Below, in pieces: positions 2,809-4,971 of a stretch of DNA of 64,000 nucleotides. Made by a program: the position numbers and the translations under genes. Source of the stretch: Promethearchaeota archaeon (GTDB lineage: Archaea > Asgardarchaeota > Lokiarchaeia > Sigyniarchaeales > SOKP01); contig JAEOUA010000006.1 of NCBI GenBank assembly GCA_016839555.1, positions 448,001 to 512,000 of the forward strand, read 5' to 3'. Position 1 is the stretch's first letter. Each line of letters begins with the position of its first letter. The notes below the pieces were generated by a model. That model had not been told where the DNA came from, searched no databases, and saw nothing but the letters and a program-made list of their open reading frames with translations.

Positions 2809-3933
2809 TTAAAATTTAGAATTTAGAGTTAAATAATTGAAACAGATTTCATTAGGATTTTCAAATTGTTTAATTTTGTCTTTATAACTCTTGGTAAATC
2901 TGCCTTTAGAGGGCTCTTTATCGAGAACTTGAATTGAATGTTTTATTATTTGATCAAGATTTCTCAAATGTTCTAATGGAAAACCGTTATTTTTGAGAAA
3001 ATGCTCTTGAGGGGCAGTTTCTCCCGGAAAAAATTCAATACTAGGTACATTTAATAAAGAACTTTCGCGGACTATCGTTCCGCCTCCGCTAACAACTAAG
3101 CTACTATAAAAACAGAGATCATCCAAATTCGGTAGATATTGAGTTATGATTAAATTTTCGTTTCCTACATATTTTTTAAATTTTTGTTGTAAATAATGCT
3201 CTTGTAATTGATTTCTAACTATTATGAGATATTTATGATTGGGAAATTCTTTAAACAATGGTGGGAAGATCTTACTTAACAAGGTCTCATTTGGTTTAAG
3301 TTCATTTATGAAATAGCATGCAGCTGTAGGTTCACTTCTCATTATTACATATTTACCTTTATCTAAATCATAAGAATTTAATATCTCCGGATTGGGAGTA
3401 AATTCCGAAAGCCAACCTATTTCATCAATTCCATCATAACGGATGATTTTTTTGGGATCTGCATAAAGATGAACATAAGTTTCTTTAGGAATACATCGTG
3501 GAGTAATTATTTTATCAATTAATGGAAATATTAATTTACAAACAGGTATATTTCGCGGCTCGTCATTATATCCTATAGATGGTATTTGCAGTCCATAAGC
3601 AATTCGGACACCTTCTACGGAAATAAAATTCACAAAATAATCGGGAAGAAATTCATTCACTAACGGAAATAAACCTTTTAATCTATCTATATGAGTTTCT
3701 AATTTATCGGCTAATTTTGCTCCACCATGTTTTCCAACTTTATGATATTCTATGGGTAGTTCAGCATTATCAAGAATCTTATAAGTGGGGCCATAATCTC
3801 GAGCGGTGATTAACAATTCGAACCCTTCCTTATCAAACTTATTAATTAATGATTGAAACAGTACGGCTGTTTTAGGCTGCTCTATATCTATCCAAATCTT
3901 CATATTTTTATTTGTTTTTAACTGCTTAATCAA
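2809..3933 (-). CDS. DUF354 family GT-B-fold protein (probable start ATG at 3903)
   Basis: MKIWIDI...ITARDY...VGKHGG, YNDEP and VSGGGTIVRESSLLNVPSI are typical of archaeal DUF354. Confidence 0.75.
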   Translation of the reverse strand: MIKQLKTNKNMKIWIDIEQPKTAVLFQSLINKFDKEGFELLITARDYGPTYKILDNAELPIEYHKVGKHGGAKLADKLETHIDRLKGLFPLVNEFLPDYFVNFISVEGVRIAYGLQIPSIGYNDEPRNIPVCKLIFPLIDKIITPRCIPKETYVHLYADPKKIIRYDGIDEIGWLSEFTPNPEILNSYDLDKGKYVIMRSEPTAACYFINELKPNETLLSKIFPPLFKEFPNHKYLIIVRNQLQEHYLQQKFKKYVGNENLIITQYLPNLDDLCFYSSLVVSGGGTIVRESSLLNVPSIEFFPGETAPQEHFLKNNGFPLEHLRNLDQIIKHSIQVLDKEPSKGRFTKSYKDKIKQFENPNEICFNYLTLNSKF

Positions 3934-4064
3934 ATTATTATTATTATACTAATTAAATTAAAATATATAATTAATTTTATAGAAATCCATAATCTTTAAC
4001 ATGAAGAAAAAAATTTATTAAATTTCAAGTATTGATATAAATACAAGTTAAGTTATTGTAGAAA

Positions 4065-4196
4065 AGCCCAGTGGTGTAGCGGCCAAAATTATGGGGTCCG
4101 TCCCTCGTGGCTTCGCATCTGGGGCCTTGAACCCCGTGACCGGATTGATTAGCTCGATTTAATCCCGCGAAAACGGTTCGAATCCGTTCTGGGCTA
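4065..4196 (+). tRNA. tRNA-Gln(UUG) with two introns (4087-4114 and 4141-4171)
   Basis: Acceptor stem AGCCCAG/CTGGGCT plus A73; T-arm AACGG-TTCGAAT-CCGTT. Removing the two BHB-bounded introns gives a 73-nt cloverleaf with D-stem GTGT/GCAT, anticodon stem TGGGG/CCCCG and anticodon TTG at 4127-4129. Confidence 0.85.
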
Positions 4197-4212
4197 TTTC
4201 TTTTTTTCCTTT
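4197..4212 (+). terminator. oligo-T archaeal terminator after the tRNA
   Basis: tttctttttttccttt immediately follows the discriminator base. Confidence 0.5.
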
Positions 4213-4347
4213 GTTAAGAAATAATAATATTTCAATATTTTTCGAAGGAATATCCTAAAAATATTTATTTGAGAGAAATTTAATATTAAGAAAAACGCAA
4301 TATATAAAAATATTTAATTAATTTAAAAATCAAGAACCATTTTGTTT

Positions 4348-4971
4348 CTAATTTAATTTGAAAGGTTTAAGATCTTTACTAAGAAATTCTTTATCAAGTA
4401 ATTTTTCATTATTAATGAGAAATTGAAGTTCCTCATCTTTTTCGCGATATTCATCGGGTAACATACGAGGAATACTGTCAATAATTGGATACCACCTATT
4501 GCATTCATTGCAGAAAAGTAAGCCAGATTCGATCTCAATTTCAATCTTTATTTTATTTATTAAATTTAATTCTGGCAATAATTCCTCAATATTTTTATTT
4601 TCAGATTTCTCTCTAAAGTTTTGTATTTTTTCTTTTACGGTCCCTTTTAATAAATCTAAACATTGTTTACTGGTTTTATAGGAAGTTTTATCTATAACAT
4701 AATTCAACTCCTCTATGCTTGAAATTATTTTATCAGAATATTCCTCAATTGGAGTTTCCTTTATGACAATATTATCTTTTATTTTTTCTTTTTCACCCTT
4801 AATAATTTCAGGGATTTGTTCCTTTCTATGGAACTCCATCTTTTTTTCATTATAGGAGTGAATATATTTTTCAAAGAGATCTTCTTGATTTTCATACGAA
4901 AATATGAATAATTTTAAAGGAAAATACTTGCAAATTGGACAAGCTAAGATATCAAAAAGCCAGAGTTTCAT
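4348..4971 (-). CDS. trm112: Trm112-like methyltransferase activator with a long helical insertion
   Basis: N-terminal LFDILACPICK and C-terminal IESGLLFCNECNRWYPIIDSIPRMLP Zn-ribbon halves. Confidence 0.8.
   Translation of the reverse strand: MKLWLFDILACPICKYFPLKLFIFSYENQEDLFEKYIHSYNEKKMEFHRKEQIPEIIKGEKEKIKDNIVIKETPIEEYSDKIISSIEELNYVIDKTSYKTSKQCLDLLKGTVKEKIQNFREKSENKNIEELLPELNLINKIKIEIEIESGLLFCNECNRWYPIIDSIPRMLPDEYREKDEELQFLINNEKLLDKEFLSKDLKPFKLN

Follow-up and report, generated by a model that had tools for sequence, protein, structure and literature searches.

The stretch 4065-4196 (+) of the window, by which we mean the whole 64,000 nucleotides of DNA analysed here, is, judged by its sequence, a real tRNA-Gln(UUG) gene that carries two short introns at unusual places; its host is an uncultured archaeon of the Promethearchaeota (Loki-type Asgard). 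We consider it about 90% probable that the gene is functional, that it is the only tRNA-Gln gene in the assembly, and that its two relaxed-BHB introns are cut by the splicing endonuclease EndA and its exons joined by RtcB. The ends of the gene, placed at 4065 and 4196 by direct reading and by script, span 132 nt, which comprise exons of 22, 26 and 25 nt and introns of 28 nt (at 21/22) and 31 nt (at 48/49). The features are as follows:

4036-4043 (+): TATA-like box TATAAATA, by direct reading, with its centre about 25 nt upstream of the mature 5' end
4065-4086 (+): exon 1, with the acceptor 5' strand, U8, G9, the D-stem 5' strand and the D-loop to A21; identical in the same-genus genes L002, L004 and L005
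4087-4114 (+): intron 1, 28 nt, in the D-loop at 21/22, relaxed BHB; by reading, script and orthologues
4115-4140 (+): exon 2, with the D-stem 3' strand, position 26, the anticodon arm and the variable loop UGAC; 0-3 mismatches against the orthologues
4141-4171 (+): intron 2, 31 nt, at 48/49, relaxed BHB (HBh'); by reading, script and covariation
4172-4196 (+): exon 3, with the T-arm, the acceptor 3' strand and the discriminator A73; by reading, ARAGORN and orthologues
4197-4207 (+): T-rich run immediately 3' of the gene; by direct reading

The coordinates that the sequence-only reading had given for the gene, both introns and their helices and bulges were all reproduced by direct reading and script. 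The acceptor stem has 7 bp (4065-4071/4189-4195) and is followed by A73 at 4196, the anticodon arm occupies 4120-4136 with the anticodon TTG at 4127-4129, and the T-arm reads AACGG/TTCGAAT/CCGTT at 4172-4188. The D-stem contains two G.U pairs, and CCA is not encoded. Removal of the introns leaves a 73-nt cloverleaf which ARAGORN calls tRNA-Gln(ttg). In archaeal tRNA-Gln, A1:U72 and A73 are expected together with an anticodon UUG or CUG; the spliced product has the cloverleaf, the anticodon UUG, A1:U72, A73, G18G19 and the T-loop GTTCGAATC, and the same features are present in all orthologues. The earlier identification as a tRNA-Gln(UUG) with two non-canonical introns and none in the anticodon loop is in line with both the ARAGORN call on the spliced form and the orthologues.

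The ORFs on either side of the gene (2809-3933 and 4348-4971) are both on the minus strand and leave a gap of 414 bp; the gene has a G+C content of 56%, against about 30% genome-wide. A motif AAG.ATTG.TA...ATAC upstream of it (window 4026-4045) is common to the same-genus orthologues at the same distance (among them L004, L005 and L017), while in other genera (L003, L009, L011 and L029) a BRE/TATA-like promoter, AAACCTTTTAA, is found at about -45 to -30. In AT-rich DNA such a TATA-like motif is weak evidence. The T-rich run that follows the gene is the usual archaeal terminator signal, and T-rich runs are found downstream of the orthologues as well.

A search of 40 related genomes and six extra regions yielded 29 distinct tRNA-Gln genes besides the window's own. 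In most relatives the neighbours of the gene are ORFs of 207 and 649 aa on one side and of 374 and/or 461 aa on the other, and since these are the neighbours of the window gene too, we regard the genes concerned as positional orthologues. Intron-free genes of 73 nt are found in L009, L011, L012, L014, L020, L022 and L026. The 21/22 intron occurs alone in L002 and L037 (same genus, 28 nt each), in L021 (20 nt), in L019 (32 nt) and probably in L015; the 48/49 intron occurs alone in L003, L004, L005, L018, L023 and L024 (30-36 nt), and the canonical 37/38 intron alone in L008, L013, L016, L017, L030 and L039. Introns near 15/16, 25/26, 45/46 and 59/60 are found in L042, L029, L040, L041 and L038. 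At the syntenic locus itself, there is no intron in L009, L011, L014, L020 and L022, a 21/22 intron in L002 and L021, a 48/49 intron in L003, L004, L005 and L024, and a 37/38 intron in L008, L016, L017 and L030. The comparison of orthologous loci that the sequence-only reading had proposed finds introns present or absent at syntenic loci, with junctions that agree with those proposed.

Throughout the family, introns of tRNA-Gln were seen at seven or more positions (about 15/16, 21/22, 25/26, 37/38, 45/46, 48/49 and 59/60). Among the genes with introns at other sites, L042 lies on G006:C127 and L029 on G021:C4, and L038 (G017:C167) has an intron of 29 nt in the T-loop and, in contrast to the window gene, encodes its CCA. 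The combination of 21/22 and 48/49 in tRNA-Gln is present in one of the 135 species-representative genomes of the family, namely the window's own, and a 21/22-type insert in tRNA-Gln is also found in MAGs of Bathyarchaeota, Thermoproteota and Thermofilaceae. When the intron interiors were compared with regard to common descent or independent insertion, their divergence was too great to discriminate between the two. One syntenic locus that shows no intron, either intron alone, both, the canonical one or introns at other sites is a natural series of the kind that is needed to study the gain and loss of BHB introns.

The same orthologues define the junctions. Genes which lack intron 1 (L004, L005, L009, L011 and others) read GGCCAA and then directly GCAT, so that exons 1 and 2 are contiguous in the intron-free orthologues, and genes which lack intron 2 (L002, L009, L011 and others) read GAC and then directly the T-stem. 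Both junctions are thus fixed to the base, because intron-free and single-intron orthologues run straight across the sites. The junction given by the BHB rule pairs A49 with U65, a shift by one nucleotide would place C49 opposite U65, and A49:U65 in the window gene co-varies with C49:G65 in the orthologues. Excision yields a canonical tRNA that is collinear with the intron-free orthologues and aligns to them without gaps; no stem is disrupted, and same-genus genes have exons 1 and 3 of the very same sequence. In L004, L005 and L024 intron 2 was put at the wrong place by global alignment, and its position at 48|49 was taken from a separate analysis instead.

A BHB motif was defined as a 4-bp central helix between two 3-nt bulges on opposite strands, cut after the second bulge base, with at least one flanking helix (h or h'), in either the strict form hBHBh' or the relaxed forms HBh'/hBH. 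The central helix of intron 1 is formed by 4081-4084 (GGCC) and 4109-4112 (GGCT), with the bulges AAA (4085-4087) and TCG (4113-4115), and that of intron 2 by 4135-4138 (CGTG) and 4166-4169 (CGCG), with the bulges ACC (4139-4141) and AAA (4170-4172); both are paired at four of four positions, with one G.U each. In intron 2 the 5' bulge is perfect and separates the central helix from an inner helix h' of 7 bp (4142-4148/4159-4165), and there is no outer helix, which makes it HBh'. Its central helix borrows C42 and G43 of the anticodon stem, and the motif can therefore not coexist with the full anticodon stem. In intron 1, the inner helix consists of two contiguous pairs, a mismatch, one pair, a one-base bulge and a 4-bp core (4093-4096/4101-4104), and a possible outer helix, the D-stem, is not adjacent but 4 nt distant; from these pairings the motif is classed as relaxed HBh' and weak. 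With a loose criterion (four of four central pairs and two flanking pairs) about 35 chance BHB-like candidates are found in the 132 nt, and simple BHB enumeration, followed by ARAGORN on the variants after splicing, produced many mutually contradictory solutions for each gene. For these reasons motif scans were not used as evidence and the orthologues were relied on instead; a BHB motif alone is weak evidence, especially for intron 1.

Conservation of the folds was examined by a covariation test on an alignment of the seven genes with intron 2, covering the central helix and the first five inner pairs, with the T-stem as control. For intron 2, 99% of the cells are paired and seven of the nine H+h' pairs have changed on both sides, values that were reached in 0 of 500 shuffles; when the partner strand was slid by 1-3 columns, pairing fell to 23-45%. 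This pattern indicates that the BHB fold of intron 2 is kept via compensatory changes. In intron 1 only one-sided changes are seen: the intron strand varies (GGCT, GGCT, GGCA, GGTT and GGGT) opposite an exon strand (G18 G19 C20 C20a) that does not, and the inner hairpin has kept its shape but not its sequence.

The sequence-only reading had supposed that such introns require an EndA of broad specificity, and a check of the subunit type by alignment gave a crenarchaeal-like alpha subunit with the specificity loop and a paralogue without the catalytic His. Two EndA genes are present in the genome. The product of the first (L031:1459-2055:-, 198 aa) has both Pfam domains and its best match is the alpha subunit of Aeropyrum pernix (3P1Z_B, 4.9e-40), followed by the alpha subunits of Sulfolobus and Pyrobaculum. 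It keeps the Tyr-His-Lys triad, the His being aligned with the residue replaced in the 3AJV mutant, and the specificity-loop residues K44 and R46 of A. pernix align with K and K. According to PMC3241643, this Crenarchaea-specific loop gives EndA the ability to cleave D-loop introns and introns with a relaxed motif. The product of the second (L032:1417-2043:-, 208 aa; G000:C4, about 243 kb) also has both domains and keeps the Tyr and the Lys, has Thr where M. jannaschii has the catalytic His, which fits a putative role as structural subunit, and is closer to the EndA of M. jannaschii and M. kandleri than to crenarchaeal beta subunits. RtcB is encoded in the genome. The EndA is most likely an (alpha-beta)2 enzyme with the crenarchaeal specificity loop on the predicted catalytic subunit.

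Taken together, these data suggest that the gene would be transcribed as a precursor of about 132 nt in which two relaxed HBh' motifs would expose the 28-nt intron 1 and the 31-nt intron 2 to this splicing endonuclease. The three exons would then be joined by RtcB to the 73-nt tRNA-Gln(UUG), and CCA, since it is not encoded, would be added after the joining.

The folding of the precursor was estimated with an energy model. The minimum-energy fold of the full precursor (-50 kcal/mol) contains the alternative hairpin (about 4089-4098 with 4130-4139), a helix between the run of G residues in intron 1 and the CCCC on the 3' side of the anticodon stem, and the conformer with the intron 1 motif is 7-8 kcal/mol worse (P about 3e-6). 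The probability of the intron 2 motif is about 8e-4 in the full precursor and rises to 0.2 after removal of intron 1, when the minimum-energy fold includes its helix, bulge and inner helix. If transcription is modelled as having reached only 4120, the best fold already includes the central helix of intron 1. The folding is compatible with an early or co-transcriptional cutting of intron 1, although this is only a model. The sequence-only reading had noted the same hairpin and suggested that it might impose a splicing order. The hairpin itself is found in this sequence and is strongly favoured by the energy model, but it is absent from the minimum-energy folds of both other same-genus intron-1 genes (L002 and L037). 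The minimum-energy fold of L002 includes the BHB core of intron 1, and for L037, which retains a GGGG run, constraining the fold to the BHB costs no stability relative to the free fold. Because it is missing from these folds, the competing hairpin looks incidental rather than designed, as far as such modelling goes.

It had been anticipated that standard scanners would miss or miscall the gene, and this is what was seen. ARAGORN in default mode and Rfam at the gathering score found no tRNA in the whole window, and Rfam with E<=10 on 3950-4300 gave no tRNA match, not even for halves of the gene. ARAGORN in intron mode found the correct ends and called a tRNA-Gly(ccc) with one 35-nt intron. As a control, the intron-free orthologues score 52-57 bits on the Rfam tRNA model (gathering score 29), with 56.6 bits for L009 and 52.2 bits for L011, which ARAGORN calls tRNA-Gln(ttg); the single-intron orthologues L002, L004 and L017 are missed by Rfam.

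In the 3.74-Mb genome Rfam recovered 23 tRNA genes and ARAGORN with introns 28, several of them miscalled, while about 45 are expected for an archaeon by a rough estimate. A census by intact T-arm and acceptor closure, which misses genes with introns in the T-arm or acceptor, gave 26 loci, and a census by GC-rich islands was useless, with 2400 islands. Met, Asn, His, Tyr and other tRNAs are unaccounted for in the genome, and the genes for the unaccounted tRNAs are probably hidden by T-arm or acceptor introns. Hand parsing of other genes points to a tRNA-Asp(GUC) of 136 nt at G000:C7:257673-257808 (+) with apparent introns at 21/22 and 48/49, and to a tRNA-Glu(CUC) at G000:C5:597028-597130 (-), miscalled Lys(ttt) by ARAGORN, with a D-loop intron of about 28 nt at or next to 21/22. 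The 21/22 and 48/49 sites seem to recur among tRNAs whose D-arm and variable-loop sequences are similar. Common scanners lose essential tRNA genes in such genomes, and statements on completeness or codon capacity that are based on tRNAs are for this reason unreliable for such MAGs.

Fuzzy searches of the 3.74-Mb assembly, in which the queries were the single exons or the first 15 nt combined with a matching acceptor strand, found no other tRNA-Gln-like gene; at 92% completeness and 6% contamination, the assembly could still lack a second Gln gene. The sequence-only reading had named an intact tRNA-Gln(UUG) elsewhere and a locus without conservation as what would speak against it; none was found in the assembly, at that completeness, and the locus is syntenic in relatives. 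A 'tRNA-Gln(ctg)' called by ARAGORN at G000:C12:89040-89149 (+; the end is also given as 89148) was rejected, as by hand reading it looks like a tRNA-Ser(GCU) with a D-arm intron of about 23 nt and a long variable arm. This putative tRNA-Ser(GCU) lies 27 bp upstream of a tRNA-Val(UAC) with a canonical intron.

One feature of the mature sequence is unusual. Position 33 is C (window 4126) and not U, which is near-universal in elongator tRNAs; T33 is present in every other tRNA of the genome that was called with confidence. A pattern for C33 in either Gln isoacceptor matched 94 of 134 genomes of the family and 0 of 26 genomes from six other families of the class, and a reversed control gave zero matches; the U33 form was found in 65 of the 134 and 8 of the 26, and genes interrupted between positions 21 and 36 escape both patterns. 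Several 100%-complete genomes have C33 in both isoacceptors (UUG and CUG) and no U33 match. From this distribution the C33 tRNA-Gln appears to be functional. A search of the literature gave no relevant paper on C33 in archaeal tRNAs. It is tempting to speculate, at somewhat less than even odds, that the family has swapped U33 for C33 in tRNA-Gln of both isoacceptors and still uses it as sole tRNA-Gln, either without the canonical U-turn base or after C-to-U editing, and that the sole copy in the present genome moreover depends on two relaxed-BHB splicings, the first of them in competition with a hairpin in which the anticodon arm is trapped; splicing would then have to be co-transcriptional or ordered. 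The C33 may be of interest to those who work on anticodon-loop structure and modification.

Some of these observations could also be read as signs that the gene is a decaying or poorly expressed relic, from which intron 1 is no longer efficiently removed, and that Gln is decoded by a copy missing from the assembly. The weak inner helix of intron 1, out-competed by the alternative hairpin by about 7-8 kcal/mol, the C33 of the mature tRNA and the 92% completeness of the assembly are in line with such decay. We consider it quite unlikely, however, as exons 1 and 3 match those of same-genus genes at every base and no stem is broken, the promoter-like motif and the T-run are kept, and the other copy was not found in the assembly. 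The C33 is moreover shared with 94 of the 134 family genomes, including complete ones in which no U33 copy was found.

Another possibility is that the inserts are expansion segments retained in the mature tRNA, as an enlarged D-loop and an extra arm by the variable region. Many 'intervening sequences' of Asgard tRNAs have been inferred from alignment only, and D-arm inserts often are without canonical motif (33% canonical) (preprint 10.64898/2026.10.13.758758); intron 2, too, is located beside the variable loop, where class II tRNAs bear their arm. Retention is nevertheless very improbable in our view. Both inserts have exact BHB geometry at a base-exact junction and are gained and lost cleanly among close relatives, intron 1 ties up G18 and G19, and the helix of intron 2 pairs and co-varies with exon bases 42-45, which is sensible only for a transient fold of a precursor. 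The tRNA-Gly(CCC) that ARAGORN proposes in intron mode, with a single intron of 35 nt and a long extra arm, shares the gene ends with our reading but requires mismatched pairs in the D-stem and anticodon stem and an implausible long arm; it comes from a program that permits one intron only, and as every orthologue is a tRNA-Gln it can hardly be given any credence. A functional tRNA-Gln gene with two introns that are spliced out is thus the preferred interpretation.

Multi-intron tRNAs were described in the sequence-only reading as best known from Thermoproteota and DPANN, a statement that needs amendment in so far as they are now also well documented in Asgard archaea (PMC11291895; 10.64898/2026.10.13.758758; PMC5829648). 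In Atabeyarchaeia and Freyarchaeia 92-95% of the tRNA genes bear introns, many of them non-canonical or multiple (PMC11291895), and incomplete tRNA sets have been noted in earlier work on Asgard MAGs. The window gene is therefore a new example and not a new kind. It resembles the multi-intron genes of Atabeyarchaeia and Freyarchaeia/Jordiarchaeia (Valentin-Alvarado et al. 2024, PMC11291895; 10.64898/2026.10.13.758758) in having several short BHB-type introns per gene, D-arm introns missed by standard annotators, gain and loss among close relatives, and two EndA paralogues per genome. It differs in that those papers focus on other Asgard classes, whereas the host here is a Loki-type genus and the pair of introns is at 21/22 and 48/49 of tRNA-Gln; neither a family of Lokiarchaeia or Promethearchaeia nor an example from tRNA-Gln is named in the main text of the preprint (10.64898/2026.10.13.758758).

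The introns can also be compared with those of Thermoproteales and other Crenarchaeota, which share the relaxed BHB outside the anticodon loop, the placement in the D-loop and the dependence, probable for the window gene, on an EndA alpha subunit with the K44-bearing loop. The D-loop intron of pre-tRNA-Thr2 from Aeropyrum pernix is cut by an (alpha-beta)2 EndA with the Crenarchaea-specific loop (PMC3241643), and non-canonical and multiple introns of crenarchaeal tRNAs have been described by Marck and Grosjean 2003 and Sugahara 2008, as cited in other papers. Unlike in those systems, the host belongs to a different phylum and its Asgard enzyme is a predicted one. Bioinformatic work by Kaneta et al. 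(2018, PMC5829648) reported an (alpha-beta)2 EndA with the L1 loop in Asgard archaea, and the two genes found here agree with that report in combining a catalytic alpha subunit that has the L1/CSL lysine with a paralogue without the catalytic His; in contrast to it, the second paralogue is closer to the EndA of M. jannaschii and M. kandleri, and the heterotetramer is putative here. Overall, the gene adds a well-controlled case to the view that Asgard tRNA genes are heavily and variably interrupted.
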